The notes under the pieces were generated by a model. The model saw only the letters and a program-made list of their open reading frames with translations, was not told the DNA's origin and made no database searches. Shown piece by piece: positions 26,920-62,036 of a DNA stretch of 64,000 bases (positions are counted from its first letter, which is position 1; the number at the start of each line of letters is the position of its first letter). Made by a program: the position numbers and the translations under genes. Source of the stretch: a virus (taxonomy: Duplodnaviria > Caudoviricetes). The DNA lies in the IMG/VR virus record IMGVR_UViG_2974541498_000001, positions 1-64,000 of that record; one strand, written 5' to 3'.

Positions 26920-27093
26920 TATTTCAATCCTTTCTATCAATAACAAATTTATCAAAGATATTAGTGAATTTAGTATAATCCAATAAATCTTTATCCATTT
27001 TATTACTATCCTTTAAATATATGTTATCATCGTAATACTTAGATAACATCCTTAATCTCATACTTTCCATAGACTGATGAAACTTTCTACTAA

Positions 27094-27525
27094 TCATTCA
27101 TTAAGTCTTTCTAACAGCTTAGGAGTCTCATTAATATTACCAACTATTTCTACTTTATTTCCCCATAGATTTCGATTATAATCTTCTGGATAACCAAATA
27201 ACAAATTATCTGTGAAAATATCATCCATAATTTTACCTGATAACTGGAAAGAGCCATATTTAAAGTAAACTTTAGCTAACCCTGTATAATCTTCATTTCC
27301 TGAATAGAATACTTTAACAATATCGCCTTCAAATACTTGGTTTCCCCATTTATCAGTATACCCGGATGACTGCTCTAACTTATAGTCTTCTCGATTGTCT
27401 TCATACTTCATTTCTCCGGAATCCTCAATATTCCACCAAATATGTGATCCATCTAAGCCCATTACCACATCCTTAATATCAACATACATAGAATTAATTT
27501 TATCCCATAATCTATAGATATTCAT
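27094..27525 (-). CDS. YopX family protein
   Basis: 'YRLWDK...QSSGYTDKWGNQVFEGDIV...EIVGNINETPKLLE'. Confidence 0.85.
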   Translation of the reverse strand: MNIYRLWDKINSMYVDIKDVVMGLDGSHIWWNIEDSGEMKYEDNREDYKLEQSSGYTDKWGNQVFEGDIVKVFYSGNEDYTGLAKVYFKYGSFQLSGKIMDDIFTDNLLFGYPEDYNRNLWGNKVEIVGNINETPKLLERLNE

Positions 27526-27752
27526 CTATCTTCTCCTTTTATTTTATAGCCAATAAGCCAAGCTTTCGCGAACGTATCCGAATTCTTACTAATATACTTT
27601 GATATGGCTTCATTAGGATATCCATAAGAAAGGGCATCAAGAAAAATATCAGCTAAATTGTCTTTTGTTTTACAATCCTCATTAAATCTATGCTTATCCT
27701 TAATAAAATTCGAAATATATTTAGGAATTTCTGGTAAGTCGCTGCTAACCAT
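27522..27752 (-). CDS. DUF1642-like protein
   Basis: 'PEIPKYISNFIK...FAKAWLIGYKIK'. Confidence 0.7.
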   Translation of the reverse strand: MVSSDLPEIPKYISNFIKDKHRFNEDCKTKDNLADIFLDALSYGYPNEAISKYISKNSDTFAKAWLIGYKIKGEDR

Positions 27753-46693: not shown

Positions 46694-47538
46694 ATATCTT
46701 TTAATTTAATTGTAGCTTGTTTATTGTTTTCTTTAGTACAAAGTAAAGAGATAATAGGATTATTTTCAAATACTTCTTTTTCTATAACTAAATCTTTTTT
46801 ATTTTCTCTACTAATTAAGGCCAAAGCTTTAACAAACTCTGAAATTAAATTTTTATATTCTGGATTATAAGCTAGATATTTAGATTGTATTTTATTATCT
46901 ATCTTCAAGCCAATTATCGCTATAGTAGTTCCATTTAAATTAATATATGCGTAATTATCATAATTAAGAGATTGAGTCCCATTAACTATAAACTTTTCTG
47001 GTATCTTATTAATTTTGCTAATAGCTGTGTCAGATACTTTGTCTAAAGCCTCTCCAATTAATCCATAAGTTAATTCAGCATCTGTTTTCTCTTTATTCGG
47101 CAATAGCTGATTCTGTTTTTTATTATCCTTATTAGGTAAAGGATTTTTTATTTCCGATTTATTAATAGCGCTAAAAGAGTCATGAGAACTATAGGAGGGT
47201 GCTTCTATTGATTCCTTAGTATTTATACTGGGAATAGGATTAAGGACCTCTATATTGCTCCCATACCTATTTAAATTGATTCTACGGTAGTCCTCACTAC
47301 TAGGGGTAATTGATTTAGAATATCTGTATAATGATAAGTAGTCGTTGAAACCATATAATAAAACTATTGGATAGTTATTATCTGTCAATTCCTGATTATT
47401 CTTAATGACAATAGATTCTGAATCAACATTTCCAATAGTTATATTTTTTAAAGTTGTTAAATCAATATCTTTATCAATAGTTTCTTTTGTAGCTTCTTCT
47501 AAGATTTTTGAAAAATCTGCTTCATTCAAACAATTCAC
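46678..47538 (-). CDS. hypothetical protein
   Basis: 286-aa ORF. Confidence 0.7.
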   Translation of the reverse strand: MNCLNEADFSKILEEATKETIDKDIDLTTLKNITIGNVDSESIVIKNNQELTDNNYPIVLLYGFNDYLSLYRYSKSITPSSEDYRRINLNRYGSNIEVLNPIPSINTKESIEAPSYSSHDSFSAINKSEIKNPLPNKDNKKQNQLLPNKEKTDAELTYGLIGEALDKVSDTAISKINKIPEKFIVNGTQSLNYDNYAYINLNGTTIAIIGLKIDNKIQSKYLAYNPEYKNLISEFVKALALISRENKKDLVIEKEVFENNPIISLLCTKENNKQATIKLKDICLEE

Positions 47539-49287: not shown

Positions 49288-49734
49288 ATGGGAATGGCTG
49301 ACAAGATAAAAAATAATCTAGATACTGCTCAGAACGATCAAGAAGTTCTATTAAAAAATCAATTTAATTCTGGAACAAAAGTTTTGATGGAAAAATTTCT
49401 TGAAAATGTTCAAGCGGGAGAAGTTTCCCTTAATAGTATTAATGATTATAATCAGCTCTTTAAAATTTTCCAAGAAGTCAACCACTTAACCGCTGAAGAT
49501 GGTGCAGAAGGAAATGGAAAGCCTCCTAAGCTATCCCTTGCTGAGGAAGACTCAATTGAAAATAAACTAAAAGTTGATACTAGGCGGGTTATGGAATCAG
49601 ATGGTCAAATGGTTGATAAGAAACAAATAGATATTAATGACATTAAAAATCTTTCAGAAAAAGACGTTGATGACATCGCGATAGATAGAACTACCATTTT
49701 AAATAATCGTAATGGTGGCTTTGATGTCGACTAA
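49288..49734 (+). CDS. putative terminase small subunit
   Basis: Directly upstream of terL; size and pattern resemble Twort-like TerS. Confidence 0.6.
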   Translation: MGMADKIKNNLDTAQNDQEVLLKNQFNSGTKVLMEKFLENVQAGEVSLNSINDYNQLFKIFQEVNHLTAEDGAEGNGKPPKLSLAEEDSIENKLKVDTRRVMESDGQMVDKKQIDINDIKNLSEKDVDDIAIDRTTILNNRNGGFDVD

Positions 49735-49743
49735 GGAGGTTCA

Positions 49744-51639
49744 ATGGAAAAGTATTCAGGATTACCTTATAATCAGTTTAATGGGAATTTTATTGCTGAT
49801 GTTTTAAAAAGAACTTTTGGAGAAAAGAGTTATTATTCCCCAGATGAATTTGCATATGTTTTAGACTTTTTATATCCACAAAATTATACTTTAAATCATC
49901 ACCAGATTGGATCGGGTAGATTAACGACTAGAGTTCCACAAAGGAATTTAAACTTTCATGCCGCCCAAGATAGAAAATGGCAAGAACAAATATTAGCCGA
50001 TATGCATCCAAATGTGGCTGTTATTAAAAGTCGGCAATTAGGTATAACGGAAATGGGGATCGCTAAAACCCTGCACTGGATTGATACCTATGCCGATAAA
50101 AAAGCTAATGCAGGCTATTTCTTCCCAACTTATCGACAACTAGAAGATTTTACTAAATCTCGTTTTAACATGGTACTGCAAGATGAATATTTAAATTCTA
50201 TTGTGGATAGTAATACTAACAGTCAGAAGATTAAACGTATTCGGGATTCTTATATTTATTTCCGGACTAGTTCAACTCCTGCCGCCGCTGAAGGTGTCGA
50301 TTTATCAGAAGCAACTATTGACGAATATGACCGTGCTCCTGAGCAATCTATTCAGTCTATTAGAAACTCCTTAAAGGGTAACGAATTGCAATATCTATTA
50401 AGGTTCTCTACTCCTAGTGCTCCCGGAGTAGGTGTGGATAGACTATATGATTCTAGTGACCAATGGTACTGGGCTTATACTTGTAAGCATTGTGGTAAGC
50501 AGAATGAGATTAAATATGCTGATTTTGACTCTACCATTTCTGGGGACAAGAATGGAAGTATTCAATTAATCAATAAAGATGGTATTGACTTAGCGGCTAA
50601 AACAGTTGCTGAAGGAACTTATCGATATGTTTGCCGATATTGTGGTCATCCTTTAGATAGGAATGGTGGTATGTGGGTCCCTCGTTACCCTGAGCGTACT
50701 TCTAATAACCAGGGGGTAAGAGGATATTATATTAGCCAAACTAACGCTGTATGGATTTCTGCGTCCCAATTAAAGACAAGTGAATTGCAGTCTCCTTCTA
50801 AGCAAGAATTCTTTAACTATGATCTAGGACTACCTTTTTTAGATGCAAAACTATCGGTTATCCCTACTGATATTTATAATCACGCTACTAGAATACACCC
50901 GGCTAAAAATAGAGAGGAATATACTTTCATTACGGTAGGTATTGACTGGGGTGTTCAACATTCCATTATTGTTTATGGTATGCGAGACAGTGGGCAACTA
51001 GAAGTTATTAATAATTTCCAAGTCCAAGGTATTGGGGCCACTGATGCAAATCGAGTTGGCGCAGATGTAAGAGAGATTGCTAGAAAACTAGATCCGTATA
51101 ATCCTGATTTAATCCTTTGTGATATTGGGGATAGTGGGGAAAAATTAGCTGAATTAATGAATATGATGGGAAGAAATGTTGTATTCGGTTGTCAAAACAA
51201 TAGTTCGCCTACTACTGGATTAGCCACTTCTAGTGGGAGTATCCGCCCAGTATGGAACGCGAATAGCAACACCGTTAAAGTAGATAAATTACTAGAGAAT
51301 AAGCGGCATATATCCATGATTAAGCAAGGGAAAGTTGGCTTCTATAAAGAAAGAACTCCTCAATTACAACGGTTAGTTAAACACTGGGGTAATGTTATTA
51401 TTAAATCTATTGAAAACAATAATGGAATTAATAGAGAAGTTGTTACTAGACGGTCTTCTAATAATGAAGGCGGGGATCACTATGCCCAAGCCGAAATTTT
51501 AGCTAATATTGCTATGGATTATTTGAGAGAAAACAAATTAGGCACTTTTGGTATCGCTTATGATGTTATTGGTGATACTAAAACCAACGAACCGACTGAT
51601 ATTCAAAAAAGAATTAATGATAATTCCTTATTTGATTAA
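49744..51639 (+). CDS. terL: terminase large subunit (Herelleviridae type, no intron)
   Basis: 'VIKSRQLGITE', 'IDEYD', 'RFSTPS', CxxC pairs, 'VGIDWG', 'DHYAQA'. Confidence 0.93.
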   Translation: MEKYSGLPYNQFNGNFIADVLKRTFGEKSYYSPDEFAYVLDFLYPQNYTLNHHQIGSGRLTTRVPQRNLNFHAAQDRKWQEQILADMHPNVAVIKSRQLGITEMGIAKTLHWIDTYADKKANAGYFFPTYRQLEDFTKSRFNMVLQDEYLNSIVDSNTNSQKIKRIRDSYIYFRTSSTPAAAEGVDLSEATIDEYDRAPEQSIQSIRNSLKGNELQYLLRFSTPSAPGVGVDRLYDSSDQWYWAYTCKHCGKQNEIKYADFDSTISGDKNGSIQLINKDGIDLAAKTVAEGTYRYVCRYCGHPLDRNGGMWVPRYPERTSNNQGVRGYYISQTNAVWISASQLKTSELQSPSKQEFFNYDLGLPFLDAKLSVIPTDIYNHATRIHPAKNREEYTFITVGIDWGVQHSIIVYGMRDSGQLEVINNFQVQGIGATDANRVGADVREIARKLDPYNPDLILCDIGDSGEKLAELMNMMGRNVVFGCQNNSSPTTGLATSSGSIRPVWNANSNTVKVDKLLENKRHISMIKQGKVGFYKERTPQLQRLVKHWGNVIIKSIENNNGINREVVTRRSSNNEGGDHYAQAEILANIAMDYLRENKLGTFGIAYDVIGDTKTNEPTDIQKRINDNSLFD

Positions 51640-51669
51640 AAAGGGAACCCCGGATAGGGGTCCCTTTTT
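51638..51669. terminator. bidirectional terminator
   Basis: aaaagggaacccc-ggata-ggggtcccttttt between convergent genes. Confidence 0.8.
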
Positions 51670-51724
51670 ATTTTAAATTATTAAAACTCATTTAGTCATC
51701 ATAATCTCCATTTATACTTTAATT

Positions 51725-52033
51725 CTAAGCATCGGGTAACTCAATATACTCGGACTCATGTTCCCAGAAATTATGCTGAGTTTTCGATCCTTCAAACCGT
51801 TTAAAGTCAGCGAATGAGTTCCAATGAAAATCTGGATTCTTTTCTAGTTCTTTATCCGCTAAGTCTTGTAAATAATGGGAAAATCCAGAGAATACCTTTA
51901 CCTGAGATAGCCCCATTTCATCCTTAACTGTAGCAGAGTATTCTTTCTTAAATAATAGCTTTCCATTCTGTACTACCTTAAAGTCATAGTTACCTGAGCT
52001 ATTCTTTACAAAGTCAATCTTAATATCCGTCAT
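51725..52033 (-). CDS. hypothetical protein
   Basis: AGGAG RBS. Confidence 0.75.
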   Translation of the reverse strand: MTDIKIDFVKNSSGNYDFKVVQNGKLLFKKEYSATVKDEMGLSQVKVFSGFSHYLQDLADKELEKNPDFHWNSFADFKRFEGSKTQHNFWEHESEYIELPDA

Positions 52034-52048
52034 TTTATCACTCCTAAA

Positions 52049-52777
52049 TTATAATGATTTTACTTTCTGATTACTAACGAAATTTCTTAACCAAACTTCT
52101 TTTCCTAGTAATTGGTTGTTAACGAAATTGCTTAACCAAACTTCTTTTTCCGGTAATTGATGACTAACGAAATGACTTAGCCAAACTTCTTTTCCTGGTC
52201 TTTGATTACTGATGAAATTGCTTATCCAAACTTCTTTTGCCGGTCTTTGGTTGTTAACGAAACTGCTTAACCAAACTTCTTTTCCCGGTCTTTGGTCATT
52301 AACGAAATTACTTAGCCAAACTTCTTTTGCCGGTCTTTGGCTACTAACGAAATTGCTTAGCCAAACACCTACTCGTTTATCTCTATCCAATAACCTTTTA
52401 ATATCAGAAGTAGACATCCCCGTAAACTTAGGATTATTCCGATTGGACTTAACGAACCCTTTTTCACTAGCCCAAGTTTGTCCTCCAGAATCAGCCTTTT
52501 GATAGAAACTATCCTGAGTGTCATATTTCTGTACTAATTGACCTTCCCGTAAAGAAACTTCATCAGCATTCTTACAAGTCTGCTCATAATCCCAAGTAAA
52601 GTCATATACTAATTTTTCCTTCTTTAATTCTTCTACATGTACCTCTTCATAGTCAGAGAAATCCTTATCTTCTTTGTGCTCGCTGAAGCGTTGCTTAATT
52701 GTCCGATTAGTATAACCCACATAAATAGGGATACCATCACCATATATTACATAGAATCTTGAAGTTATCTTAAACAT
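52049..52777 (-). CDS. GIY-YIG endonuclease fused to 7 x 15-aa tandem repeats
   Basis: 'FYVIY..IYVGYT..IKQRFSEH...LREGQLV..Y' followed by KEVWLSNFVxxQRP repeats. Confidence 0.75.
   Translation of the reverse strand: MFKITSRFYVIYGDGIPIYVGYTNRTIKQRFSEHKEDKDFSDYEEVHVEELKKEKLVYDFTWDYEQTCKNADEVSLREGQLVQKYDTQDSFYQKADSGGQTWASEKGFVKSNRNNPKFTGMSTSDIKRLLDRDKRVGVWLSNFVSSQRPAKEVWLSNFVNDQRPGKEVWLSSFVNNQRPAKEVWISNFISNQRPGKEVWLSHFVSHQLPEKEVWLSNFVNNQLLGKEVWLRNFVSNQKVKSL
52068..52370 (-). repeat. 7 x 45-bp tandem repeat
   Basis: ccaaac anchor at 52091, 52136, 52181, 52226, 52271, 52316, 52361. Confidence 0.97.
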
Positions 52778-52779
52778 GA

Positions 52780-53331
52780 CTAGTATTCGACTCCTTCATT
52801 AATTGGCAATGTTACACATCTAAATCCATTATCACTACCAGGTAGTTTCATAGAAGTCAGTACCAGGTAACTTTCTGAACCTGCACTAGATATGGTAACC
52901 TCTACTTTTTTAAGGTCATCAATGTTTTTTCCCTTGTGAAAGTCTACTCCACGTAGGTACAGAATGCTGTACACACCTGATGTTGCATCTCCTGTGATAC
53001 TATCACACCTACCAAGAGTGTTATCTTCAGCATCATACAGAGTAATAGATGGGTACCATGCATCCTTTTTGGTATCCTTAGTACTCTCACTGGTACCTAA
53101 AACATTTCCCTCTGAATCTGATAAAATAATCTTCGGGTGTTCCGATTGATTCTTGCTTGGATCAAATAAGTGAAGTTTTTCTAGTAGTTCTTCTACCATA
53201 TCCATGCCTTCTTGATATTCTTTACTATCAATTTCTGTACAATGCTGTAACCAGTAGAACAAATTATCTAGATAATCTTGAACTTCTATAATGTTATCCT
53301 CTAACTTTTGTGCTACTTCTTCATTCTTCAT
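52780..53331 (-). CDS. hypothetical protein
   Basis: Internal duplication 'IILSDSEGNVLG' / 'ITLYDAEDNTLG'. Confidence 0.75.
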   Translation of the reverse strand: MKNEEVAQKLEDNIIEVQDYLDNLFYWLQHCTEIDSKEYQEGMDMVEELLEKLHLFDPSKNQSEHPKIILSDSEGNVLGTSESTKDTKKDAWYPSITLYDAEDNTLGRCDSITGDATSGVYSILYLRGVDFHKGKNIDDLKKVEVTISSAGSESYLVLTSMKLPGSDNGFRCVTLPINEGVEY

Positions 53332-53683
53332 GATTAGTTACTCCTTCTTCTTGACCACTTTGTACCTGATATTCCTGTCTATGATGATAATGATTTTGCA
53401 AGTTATCACTATCTGAACCTAAGTAGTCAATACCCAGAGTATCCTTCAAGTACTTTATAGAAATATCTTTACCAAGATGATAGAATAGTACACTATCATT
53501 GAACCACTTTAAGGCTTTCATAGCTTCCTTGTCTGTACTACCTTCTACTAGGTACCCTTTATCTTGTAGGTACTTTTCTAATCGTTCGCTATGGTCAACA
53601 GCAAAATAATGTTGTACTACCATGTCTCCAACCTTGCTTTGTACCATTTCTGGTACGATAATTTCGTGTCCATCAATATTCAT
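53321..53683 (-). CDS. hypothetical protein
   Basis: AAGGAG RBS. Confidence 0.75.
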   Translation of the reverse strand: MNIDGHEIIVPEMVQSKVGDMVVQHYFAVDHSERLEKYLQDKGYLVEGSTDKEAMKALKWFNDSVLFYHLGKDISIKYLKDTLGIDYLGSDSDNLQNHYHHRQEYQVQSGQEEGVTNHEE

Positions 53684-53697
53684 TAATTAATTTCTCC

Positions 53698-53877
53698 TTA
53701 CATATAGTCCTGATTTTCTAAAAGAAAATAAATATCTTGCACAACTTGCCATTTTTTCTTTAGATCATAAAACTCATCTAAATTTCCATTTTCATAGTTT
53801 TCATAATTAGGTTCCTCTGGCTGTTCCTGTAAGGCATTTCTTAATTTGTCTAAAAATTCATATTGTTCATCAGTCAT
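53698..53877 (-). CDS. 59-aa hypothetical protein (not in ORF track)
   Basis: GGGGTG RBS; MTDEQYEFLDKLRNAL...; fills an operon gap. Confidence 0.65.
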   Translation of the reverse strand: MTDEQYEFLDKLRNALQEQPEEPNYENYENGNLDEFYDLKKKWQVVQDIYFLLENQDYM

Positions 53878-53879
53878 AA

Positions 53880-54389
53880 TTATTTCACCCCAGTGTAATC
53901 ATGGGCAATCTTAGCGCTAACACATGCGACTAATCCCACAATTAAATCGTCTAAGAAAACATTTACAGAAGTATTATCCTGATCTAGCTTAGCAATAATC
54001 CCAGTCTTCTCTTTATCTAACCATCCAGCACTGGTGATTCCAATTCCTCCATATAAGGAGGAAAAGCCATAATAAGCTAACACTTCGTCTACGGCGAATA
54101 CTCCCAGATCTTCATCCATAATAGTTTGTAGTGGTTCATCTAATTCCTTATTAGAAGCATCTTTGTCTAAAGCAATTCCTACCATGCAACAATTTAAGAT
54201 ATCCCATTTCCTAGTGATTTCTAAAGTAGCTGAAATATATTTTTCTAAGGGAACTTCTGGTAAGAACTTCTTTTGCAACCCCATAGCTAATTCTCCAATG
54301 GACTTTTCTGTTACTCCTTTGCTATTTAAATAATTCCATACGTATCCATATGCGAGCGTGCTTGGATACTTATCACGGTTATTTAACAT
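53880..54389 (-). CDS. pgpA: phosphatidylglycerophosphatase A (YutG/LtrC-like)
   Basis: 'GIALD...EPLQ..DLGVFAVDEVLA..LYGGIG....WLDKEKTGII...FLDDL'. Confidence 0.8.
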   Translation of the reverse strand: MLNNRDKYPSTLAYGYVWNYLNSKGVTEKSIGELAMGLQKKFLPEVPLEKYISATLEITRKWDILNCCMVGIALDKDASNKELDEPLQTIMDEDLGVFAVDEVLAYYGFSSLYGGIGITSAGWLDKEKTGIIAKLDQDNTSVNVFLDDLIVGLVACVSAKIAHDYTGVK

Positions 54390-56479: not shown

Positions 56480-56671
56480 TTATTTCCCCGTAATAAATAC
56501 AGTCCCTAAAGGAAATTCATATTCCTCTGCAAAATCATCATCTGGGGAAACTTGTAATTCTGGATCATAATTAGGAATTTCTAAAGCTCCCCCTGTCGAA
56601 TGATTATAGATAGCAACTTCTGTTTCACCATCATATTTCTCTAATTCCTTAATTAAATCTTTAACTTTCAT
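56480..56671 (-). CDS. hypothetical protein (MKVKDLIKEL family)
   Basis: Common phage small-protein N-terminus. Confidence 0.7.
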   Translation of the reverse strand: MKVKDLIKELEKYDGETEVAIYNHSTGGALEIPNYDPELQVSPDDDFAEEYEFPLGTVFITGK

Positions 56672-57387
56672 TTTAAATACCCGATAAAATATTGATTATC
56701 TTCCTTTTGCGAAGTAGGTGTAATATCTGTAATAACTTCATATAAAACCTTCTCTGGATTGTTATTAAATTCCTTGTAATAATAAAGAGTTCCAATATTA
56801 CTAGTATGGTTATAGATAAAGTCTACGATATCATCTACTGTAATAATATATTCTTTACATTCAGTAAAATACCCGCGACTATCTTCTTTAATAGCAGAAG
56901 TAATAGCAATCATAGTCCCATTACTCCAACCAATATTCTTCACTAGCAGACCAGTATTTAAAGGTAACCCAACACTATTATGATTTGCTTCAAGCTTATC
57001 TGACTGTTCAAATAAATCTTGAATAGTTCCTAATACTTTCTTGTGCATTTCCTTCTTAGAGTTTGGAACTACTACTCCGCCATGAATAGTATCAATAGGC
57101 TTATTTTTATCCTGAAAATAGAAATCTTGCCAATCATCTGCTAATAAATCCTCTTGGCTAGGAGACCAGCCTACCTGTAGTTCCCCCTTACTATTTTTTA
57201 AATCAATATGGGGGTTAATTGTAACTTCCTTATCAGTTAGACTAAATCTTAAAGTATCATTATTTATCTTACTCTTAGGAATAACTGATCCGCTTTCAAG
57301 GTAAATAAACATATTCTTACCATTCCAGCCTTTTCGATAGGCTTTATTACCTCTCATAACACTCTTCAATACTTCATAGAATTTCAT
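56668..57387 (-). CDS. Tad2/DUF2829 domain fused to an unknown C-terminal domain
   Basis: 'GNKAYRKGWNGKNMFIYL...PHIDLK...GWSPSQEDLLADDW'. Confidence 0.8.
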   Translation of the reverse strand: MKFYEVLKSVMRGNKAYRKGWNGKNMFIYLESGSVIPKSKINNDTLRFSLTDKEVTINPHIDLKNSKGELQVGWSPSQEDLLADDWQDFYFQDKNKPIDTIHGGVVVPNSKKEMHKKVLGTIQDLFEQSDKLEANHNSVGLPLNTGLLVKNIGWSNGTMIAITSAIKEDSRGYFTECKEYIITVDDIVDFIYNHTSNIGTLYYYKEFNNNPEKVLYEVITDITPTSQKEDNQYFIGYLK

Positions 57388-58014: not shown

Positions 58015-58067
58015 ATTCTATACTTATTCTAGCATATTTATGTTTTTAAGTCAATCTATTCCCAAAA

Positions 58068-58457
58068 TAAAAAGGATAGTTCCCTATCCTTCAACATGAG
58101 GTTTATCCTTTCGAGTTCCCTCGATAATTCCACTATTAAAAGTGTACTCAGGTAGAGTATGACTGGATAGTCACCCAACCTATAACCATCTAATGCCAGC
58201 ACTAGATTTTGGGATGATCCATATTAGGAATCGCCTTATTGCTTTATTCCCCATGTTTGACCTGACCAAGGAAGATTACTAATTAATGTCAGGTAGCAAG
58301 ATCATTGTCTTACCTTATTTACCTAATTATTCCGAAGTTACTTAGGCCATTCCTATTATTTATGTATACTACCCAATAAGGGATAATTTTTAAGAATAAT
58401 AATATTAATTATTATTTACTTAATTTCAGCTTATTGGTAGATTTCAATATCTTTATC
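58068..58457 (-). ncRNA. large structured ncRNA, ROOL-like candidate
   Basis: No ORF; TATAAT at 58464-69; terminator at 58068-91; more than 8 stems and a possible pseudoknot; near tRNA genes. Confidence 0.7.
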
Positions 58458-58547
58458 AATACTATTATAAAGTAGTCGATCGCACTAGTTTAGTAGTTCA
58501 AAAAACAATAAGTGCCTTTAACTTGTGCTTATTCGATTATATGACTC

Positions 58548-59060
58548 CTATTTTAATACGTCTTCTGGCGCCGGTGTCCATGGCGTTGCAATTGTACCTT
58601 TCTCCAATTTAAAGAACCTAACATATACGTCCATTGTTCCATACAAATCAAAAGCATATGCGTTACCATTAAATGAAATCGTTCTTGAAACCCGTTGCCA
58701 ATCACTAGTTGGATTCATACCGGCCAGCTGATCGGGTTCTGCCCAATTTTCCCATCCTAGTCTATCAACTTTGCCGGTTCCTTTAACATCGACCGAGATA
58801 ACATAATTTCCACTTGTTGGAAAATTAAAAAAGGAATAAAATCCTGAACTATTGTTAGTTCCAATGACATGTAGCGCTACTTCGCCACTATCCATTGTAA
58901 CTTTCTGGATTGTACCTCCCGAATTACCGGTAATGCCACCCCACGAAGAATCATATGAACCCTTAATCAGATTACGCCCGTAAACCAGCCTGCCATTGCT
59001 CATCACCTTGTCTACTGGCATGCCATCAACAACACATGCTCTACCGTTGATCGTTGACAT
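58548..59060 (-). CDS. carbohydrate-binding-module virion accessory protein
   Basis: 'GRNLIKGS...KLEKGTIATPWTPAPED'; GC-richer DNA. Confidence 0.7.
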   Translation of the reverse strand: MSTINGRACVVDGMPVDKVMSNGRLVYGRNLIKGSYDSSWGGITGNSGGTIQKVTMDSGEVALHVIGTNNSSGFYSFFNFPTSGNYVISVDVKGTGKVDRLGWENWAEPDQLAGMNPTSDWQRVSRTISFNGNAYAFDLYGTMDVYVRFFKLEKGTIATPWTPAPEDVLK

Positions 59061-59064
59061 TCAA

Positions 59065-59286
59065 TCACCCCTTAATAAAGTAGACGCCAGACTTGTCAGC
59101 CAATGCGTCATATTCAGCCTGCGAGATGATATTGATGACGGCGTCTTTACCAGGATCACCCTTATCCCCCTTAATCGTGCTGACAGCGTCTATTTTCTTT
59201 TCTGTATCCTGAACACCCGTTTCAATATGATTAAGCTTTTCTGCTGTAATTATTTCTTCACTTACCCAATTATGTGGGTTATACAT
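59065..59286 (-). CDS. small collagen-like virion accessory protein
   Basis: 'ITAEKLNHIETG', 'KGDKGDPGKD', 'SQAEYDAL.DK.GVYFI'. Confidence 0.7.
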   Translation of the reverse strand: MYNPHNWVSEEIITAEKLNHIETGVQDTEKKIDAVSTIKGDKGDPGKDAVINIISQAEYDALADKSGVYFIKG

Positions 59287-59434
59287 ATTAGTTTACCTCG
59301 CTTTTGTCTACAACTTCTTTATCAATGGCACTACTATATGATTTAGAAAAAGCTAACCCCATATCTGATTGATATATGTTAGCCTTTAAAATTAATATAG
59401 TTTAATGGGTTTATATTTCTTATGATTCTGATAA

Positions 59435-59520
59435 CGGAAAGTACAGGACTCGAACCTGCAATACCCAAGGGGTACAACGAGTTAGCAACCCGCTTCAATA
59501 CCAATTATGATTAACTTTCC
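59435..59520 (-). tRNA. tRNA-Ser(GCT)
   Basis: Long variable arm; loop TTGCTAA. Confidence 0.9.
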
Positions 59521-59533
59521 ATGATAATGATAA

Positions 59534-61849: not shown

Positions 61850-61915
61850 ATTACTTATTTCTATAATCTTATTATAGCATACTATCTAATATTCTGTCAA
61901 GCACTTTATAATAAA

Positions 61916-61963
61916 AAGTAGCAATAGGAATCGAACCTATTAATCACCCTACCAAGGGCTACT
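61916..61963 (-). ncRNA. anticodon-less mini-tRNA
   Basis: AGTAGC/GCTACT acceptor; CCCT-TGGT-AGGG D-like arm; ATAGG-TTCGATT-CCTAT T-arm; own TTGACA/TAAGAT promoter. Confidence 0.6.
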
Positions 61964-62036
61964 AGCGATTACTAACAATCGATAAACACATCTTATCATA
62001 TTAATTTAAATATGTCAAGATATTAAAACAAATATT

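Follow-up and report, generated by a model that had tools for sequence, protein, structure and literature searches.

The window analyzed here, a 64,000-nucleotide stretch of DNA, opens a complete virus record of 136.6 kb, from a Lactobacillus-brevis-type phage whose nearest named relative is Levilactobacillus phage ENFP1 (Herelleviridae, Tybeckvirus). ARAGORN and Rfam calls place an array of 11 tRNA genes in it, and at the end of that array, beside the tRNA cluster and on the same strand, lies the unit that we call the core: 287 nt (58068-58354, - strand; 262 nt without its terminator), starting AGGAAUGGCC, ending with an intrinsic terminator and U tail, and inherited separately from its surroundings. 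The last tRNA gene of the array, tRNA-Ser(gct) (59434-59521, -), lies upstream of the core, and the order tRNA-Asn, tRNA-Ser ahead of it is the same in the window's phage and in ENFP1; the sequences show no encoded CCA in the tRNAs ahead of the core. At the head of the array is a 92-nt tRNA-like gene (61915-62006, -), for which ARAGORN reported a two-base, undetermined anticodon. In the window's phage, tRNA-Ser and the core are separated by an AT-rich hairpin and a tail-like cassette of about 1 kb, whose two genes (73 and 170 aa; 58548-59286, -) match tail-fibre and host-range/adsorption protein families; the cassette is missing at this spot in ENFP1 and present in the relatives L005 and L020. 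In the latter, an ENA contig, a gene of the IS605 OrfB/TnpB type (positions 1-588) lies directly upstream of the cassette, which indicates mobile-element traffic in the region. A gene 0.7 kb downstream of the core, kept beside it in most relatives, encodes a 239-aa protein (56668-57387, -) with an N-terminal Tad2-like (anti-Thoeris) domain (E 2e-22) and a C-terminal half without assignment. The region around the core is an accessory region.

The limits of the core are set by comparison. Identity to ENFP1, to L008, L020, L025 and L028, and to the run contigs begins at 58354 and stops just past the terminator, beyond which differences return within a few bases. Between these limits the core differs from that of ENFP1 at 3 of 287 nt (99% identity), against about 84% identity in the collinear 3-kb flanks and 88-92% in the tRNA genes, a high identity that could reflect recent exchange of the module and not selection. 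In other contexts the core begins 0-14 nt past a tRNA 3' end, the distance being 14 nt from tRNA-Ser in both ENFP1 and run X18, and 0-2 nt from a tRNA-Ile-like gene in run X15; that the window's flanking genes are not covered in runs X15 and X18 is uninformative, because the flanks differ between phages. The terminator (58066-58092, -) has a 9-bp stem, a GGAA loop and a U run, and its hairpin (58092-58071; aaggatag-ggaa-ctatcctt), which had been picked out with the T run from the sequence alone, stands alone as a terminator-like site in the 1.4 kb around it and is kept in every relative, including those that lack the core. A strong sigma-70-type promoter (58026-58054, -; TTGACT, 17 nt, TAGAAT with TG; 10/12 matches) then serves the next gene and marks the end of the RNA unit; it is kept ahead of differing downstream genes in relatives.

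Upstream, the sequence-only reading had extended the RNA to about 390 nt, which overstates its size: the additional 5' part is an AT-rich hairpin module (58369-58440, -) just upstream of the core, and the two occur separately in relatives. This hairpin, whose outer stem of 11 bp encloses a near-perfect palindrome made of A and T only, is 85% identical in phage 3-521, which belongs to a different genus (Watanabevirus); it abuts the terminator directly, the core being missing, in L005, L006, L022 and L023, and it is missing before the core in ENFP1. It folds with a z score of about -3 on both strands and gives the impression of a recombination or protein-binding site acting in DNA, not of a piece of the RNA. 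Neither the hairpin nor the promoter and terminator pieces of the flanks recur in the genome, an 18-nt repeat at 47462 lying within a coding region. L025 (265-405) and L026 contain a second, inverted copy of the 5' arm of the hairpin together with the 17 nt before it, the two copies lying around a TATAAT. That hexamer (58464-58469, - in the window) had been noted as a promoter element and is indeed present on the - strand; however, it has no -35 partner, was not called by the promoter scan, and reads CACAAT in L008, L020 and L028.

The 390-nt stretch folds better than its shuffles (z -2.96), as does the 287-nt core, for which the excess is specific to the - strand (z -3.14, versus -1.57 on the + strand). 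All stems that had been read from the letters are present on the - strand: ctaccaataag/cttattgggtag, gcctaa/ttaggt and cctgac/gtcagg, together with the closing helix acatgggg/cctcatgt and, inside it, atctagtgc/gcattagat, tgact/agtca, cact/agtg and tcgag-GGAA-ctcga. The predicted core fold opens with three hairpins: H1 (58321-58347, -; GCCUAA/UUAGGU, with a 15-nt loop containing CUUCGG), H2 (58295-58314, -; of variable length) and H3 (58261-58293, -; CCUGAC/GUCAGG, with a 21-nt loop). A junction domain follows (58093-58257, -; fold z -2.84), in which the 9-bp closing helix H4 (58257-58249 with 58101-58093) surrounds five hairpins, H5 (58235-58211), H6 (58207-58188), H7 (58182-58149), H8 (58144-58131) and H9 (58124-58111, with a GGAA loop), all on the - strand. 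The core helices use eight G-U pairs, which on the opposite strand are C-A mismatches. A long-range TAGGAAT/ATTCCTA pairing had also been suggested as a pseudoknot; because chance alone should yield several complementary pairs of 7 nt in a stretch of 390 nt, it needed comparative support, and this did not come: both sides are invariant, the end pair is broken in L028, and the ATTCC strand is also used by the local hairpin H5. H5, in which one strand is fully complementary in three copies through two adjacent substitutions, competes with the AGGAAU/AUUCCU pseudoknot. A UAUGG/CCUAAG pair resembling a tetraloop-receptor motif was dropped, UAUGG being UAAGG in three copies and the topology being unfit.

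The predicted pairs were tested on seven intact copies from separate contigs (the window, ENFP1, L008, L009, L020, L025, to which L026 is identical, and L028), which had been retrieved with a conserved 22-mer (L008 and L009) and as relatives of the 88-residue downstream open reading frame, intact ones then being picked with a covariance model, R1, built from the core. Across these copies 98.8% of cells are standard pairs. Three pairs are changed on both sides, one in H2 in two copies and two in H7 in L025, a number reached in 18 of 500 shuffles; counted as cells, four are changed on both sides, which 2 of 500 shuffles reach. The covariation score is 0.057, versus 0.043 in shuffles (reached in 0 of 500) and at most 0.020 with slid partners, in an alignment that was fitted to the model and whose copies are 92-99% alike. 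At the level of single helices, H2 has been rebuilt in L020 and L025 as GGCGA/UCGUU with a loop 5 nt shorter; one of its pairs has both bases replaced (A-U to G-C), and two more have a change in one base only. In H7 of L025 the two changes are U-A to G-C and A-U to G-C. One H4 pair is G-U, G-C or, in run X1, A-U; H3 has U-G in place of a C-G pair in one copy and lacks its outermost pair in L008, and an inner 2-bp pairing of its loop, seen in the single-sequence fold, is G-C, G-U or A-U among the variants. Comparative support for H1 is weak, U.U occurring in L025 and, at the end pair, U.C in L020, and H5, H6, H8 and H9 are invariant, five helices in all never varying. An apparent breakage of H7 pairs in run X15 proved false: the variant tables had omitted 12 substitutions, and the contigs L025 and L026 show compensation. 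Compensatory pairs and the lack of a conserved reading frame together are what is expected of a structured noncoding RNA, and they lend that interpretation modest support, the copies being few and close.

Among relatives the core may be complete, cut down to a single hairpin and the terminator, or missing. The close relatives L005, L006 and L021-L023 are without it; a mini form, L024, retains only H1 and the terminator, in agreement with a contig of run X2 that skips 225 nt of the core; and in a copy that looks decayed, L029, the first 25 nt and the outer closing helix are gone and stems are broken at two more places. Because whole, mini, absent and decayed forms exist and the AT-rich hairpin is found separately, the core is, judged from these sequences, a discrete and dispensable module. 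R1 finds one copy per genome, and neither terminal repeats nor a second copy of the core was found in the 136.6-kb phage genome; a search of the same genome for an antisense target, partner or complementary site returned only chance 12-mers. The core is held in runs from 16 studies of food fermentation, manure, landfill, digesters and wastewater, and the metagenome scan with the conserved 22-mer gave the two landfill contigs, L008 and L009. When IMG/VR was scanned for exact occurrences of four conserved words, either nothing or a single chance match inside a coding region (L010) came back. Origin of the core from the host is not indicated, because an exact 22-mer scan of 185,579 species genomes was empty. 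A distant BLAST search with the region matched only Lactobacillus-type phages and one Hujiaoplasma phage, and no Staphylococcus phage. The family is narrow, with about eight distinct copies that are 92-99% identical and all from one phage group.

We consider it likely, with a probability of roughly 0.6, that the core is a functional, stable, structured noncoding RNA gene of an undescribed family, in line with the original proposal of a noncoding RNA; the core most likely is a structured noncoding RNA gene beside a phage tRNA cluster. The alternative that calls for the closest attention, although we think it unlikely, is that the core is a nonfunctional mosaic spacer or selfish DNA module, shuffled by recombination at a tRNA/terminator hot spot, and that its hairpins are incidental. 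The presence/absence and partial-deletion polymorphism among close relatives, including the shortened X2 contig and the decay of L029, is what such a spacer might show, as is the high mosaicism of the flanks, with their differing upstream and downstream neighbors. Substitutions are also about equally frequent in paired and unpaired columns, by a rough count with variants rebuilt from incomplete tables. On the other hand, three pairs have changed on both sides and the rebuilt H2 hairpin retains its pairing, the fold excess belongs to the - strand, and the genome has no terminal repeats or second copies of the module. Its boundaries moreover are those of an RNA-like unit, with a tRNA at the start and a terminator at the end, and the most diverged copies keep stretches of more than 100 nt almost unchanged.

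Strong conservation of a noncoding stretch would also be compatible with a cis-acting DNA element, such as a site for recombination, replication or protein binding, and the adjoining AT-rich palindrome, which folds equally on both strands and lies in a larger inverted duplication in L025, suggests rearrangement at the DNA level. For the core itself we regard this explanation as very unlikely: its eight G-U pairs would be C-A mismatches in the complement, its excess of folding is specific to one strand, its compensatory changes retain RNA pairing, and it is dispensable in close relatives.

The sequence-only reading had favored a third identity, a compact ROOL-type RNA, and membership of the core in ROOL or GOLLD, as a compact or degenerate form, now appears highly improbable. 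ROOL RNAs have six junctions and three pseudoknots over 581 nt (PMC5737381), and ROOL and GOLLD form multimeric RNA cages (bioRxiv 10.1101/2024.12.08.627333); GOLLD, an RNA of phages or prophages, often lies in tRNA islands and in some cases is linked directly to a tRNA (bioRxiv 10.1101/2024.12.08.627333). The likenesses are in setting and general form. Like ROOL, the core is a phage-borne, multihelix RNA without open reading frames that adjoins tRNA genes, lying at the end of the 11-tRNA array here and directly 3' of a tRNA in ENFP1, X15 and X18, and it sits in a Lactobacillus-type phage next to tRNA-Asn/Ser, much as do the ROOLs of phages LP65 and Iacchus; like GOLLD, it is an RNA of a phage tRNA island. 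With Rfam 15 at gathering score, however, the whole window contains no family except tRNA, and a search of 751 nt around the core with permissive filters, down to E≤10, gave only a 25-nt chance snoRNA match outside the RNA. The ROOL model (RF03087; gathering score 99.1 bits) finds no match in the whole 136.6-kb phage or in ENFP1. The test works on this kind of phage: as a positive control the same model recovered full-length ROOL in three sister phages, 3-521 (179 bits), Iacchus (144 bits) and LP65 (128 bits). GOLLD, which we take to be among the families of Rfam, gave no match on the region when the whole Rfam 15 library was searched, and at 287 nt the core is far from the >800 nt of that RNA. 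Since there is no Rfam match at E≤10 while the ROOL model finds the ROOLs of sister phages, the core is not a ROOL or GOLLD variant.

Comparison in the opposite direction agrees with this. A model of the core finds nothing inside the ROOLs of 3-521, Iacchus and LP65, and plain alignment of the core to the three is at chance level. Plain alignment of the 3-521 and Iacchus ROOLs to each other is also at chance level, so that ROOLs can lack mutual primary-sequence similarity, a point in favor of a ROOL that had gone unrecognized; yet the covariance model scores 128-179 bits on those phages and nothing here. In architecture, too, the core, with 287 nt against about 580 nt for ROOL, has a single multistem junction in single-sequence and consensus folds, compared with six, and no supported pseudoknot, and its distribution is limited to one small phage group. 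The sequence-only reading had allowed that the lack of a match to the Rfam models, combined with covariation, would mean a new class, and this is exactly the combination obtained.

The three sister-phage ROOLs lie at 27084-27643 of the 3-521 record (L031 1501-2060), 130845-131400 of the Iacchus record (L032 1501-2056) and 52015-52589 of the LP65 record (L033 1501-2075), and none is annotated there. In LP65 and Iacchus the ROOL is inside the tRNA array and on the tRNA strand, after tRNA-Asn (or a Pro-like tRNA) and before tRNA-Leu; in 3-521 it is about 15 kb from the tRNA cluster. The LP65 record (49688-54067; L033/L035) annotates the tRNAs on the + strand and ARAGORN places them on the - strand, as are the ROOL and flanking genes; the strand in this old record is probably an annotation error. 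The core of the ROOL-less Tybeckvirus-like phages occupies a position like that of ROOL in LP65 and Iacchus. R1 finds no match in 3-521 or LP65. A 130-nt spacer that follows tRNA-Ser in 3-521 was considered as a homolog of the core and rejected: it can be aligned in MAFFT, but its local alignment score equals that of shuffles. That spacer (L002 1371-1500) forms a long hairpin (-27.6 kcal/mol) unrelated to the core and may be another small RNA in the same slot.

A hidden small-protein gene, for which only a 45-codon GTG frame (58202-58056) comes into consideration, can practically be dismissed. In its favor the frame is open in 6 of 7 copies, but it has no ribosome-binding site, runs through the terminator hairpin and is frameshifted in L025 by a +1 insertion that alters the entire C-terminal half, and the -5-nt length change elsewhere in the unit argues against coding as well. 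No open reading frame of the stretch is conserved.

Evidence bearing on expression comes from two RNA libraries of different studies, in which contigs bridge the tRNA 3' end and the core; such contigs, which carry no information on ends, strand or level and may stem from DNA carry-over, are compatible with cotranscription of the core with the tRNA. Noncoding RNAs from tRNA regions have precedents in other phages. The RNAC and RNAD of T4, of about 120-140 nt, are co-processed with the tRNAs. As would be the case for the core, they are small RNAs transcribed from a phage tRNA gene region (PMC3014915); T4 differs in phage family and host, and homology is not expected. In phage K (Kayvirus), a member of the same virus family, Herelleviridae, abundant long noncoding RNAs are made beside the tRNA genes (PMC9241854). 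Its lnc001 and lnc002 are noncoding transcripts from intergenic stretches beside tRNA genes, a setting that the core shares, but they measure 635 and 1154 nt and show no sequence similarity to it in distant BLAST. The core thus fits a known kind of RNA, the phage tRNA-island RNAs, while standing outside any described family.

The best reading of these results is that the core is a new, accessory structured RNA of narrow distribution, produced at the end of a tRNA operon. It would be transcribed together with the phage tRNA operon or form its final unit, and its 5' end would probably be set by 3' processing of the preceding tRNA; RNase Z would be expected to act there, because the tRNAs carry no encoded CCA. 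The 3' end would be set by the core's own intrinsic terminator, whose hairpin and U run are plain in the sequence. Between these ends the predicted fold has three 5' hairpins and, after them, a domain with a six-way junction that the 9-bp helix closes, an arrangement partly backed by the compensatory changes. Most likely such an RNA would act in trans, as a folded molecule with a binding partner, from the host or the phage, that is connected with tRNA or translation; in this sense it would be a compact functional counterpart of ROOL, which sister phages have in their tRNA arrays and this clade lacks.

In a more specific version, the core would have replaced ROOL in the ENFP1-like clade of Levilactobacillus Herelleviridae and would do the same job, for example by engaging tRNAs, ribosomes or a host defense that senses tRNAs or ribosomes, and it might self-assemble as well. 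We regard this replacement as speculative and rather improbable. That ROOL-less sister phages carry a different RNA next to tRNA-Asn/Ser suggests selection for the presence of some structured RNA in this part of the tRNA array, and not for one particular family.

Few bacterial or phage RNAs that lack a known function are as large as ROOL and GOLLD, and the core is a different RNA, half the size of ROOL. If it does replace ROOL, the occurrence of whole, mini and absent forms in culturable phages would provide a tractable handle on the role of ROOL-type RNAs. Should the core be only a relic of recombination, the analysis would still document unannotated ROOL genes in three Lactobacillus phages, those of LP65 and Iacchus within tRNA arrays. 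Cultures exist of ENFP1 and of its host strain, and some natural variants are without the RNA or have a single hairpin of it, so that the role of the core in these phages is open to ordinary experiments.
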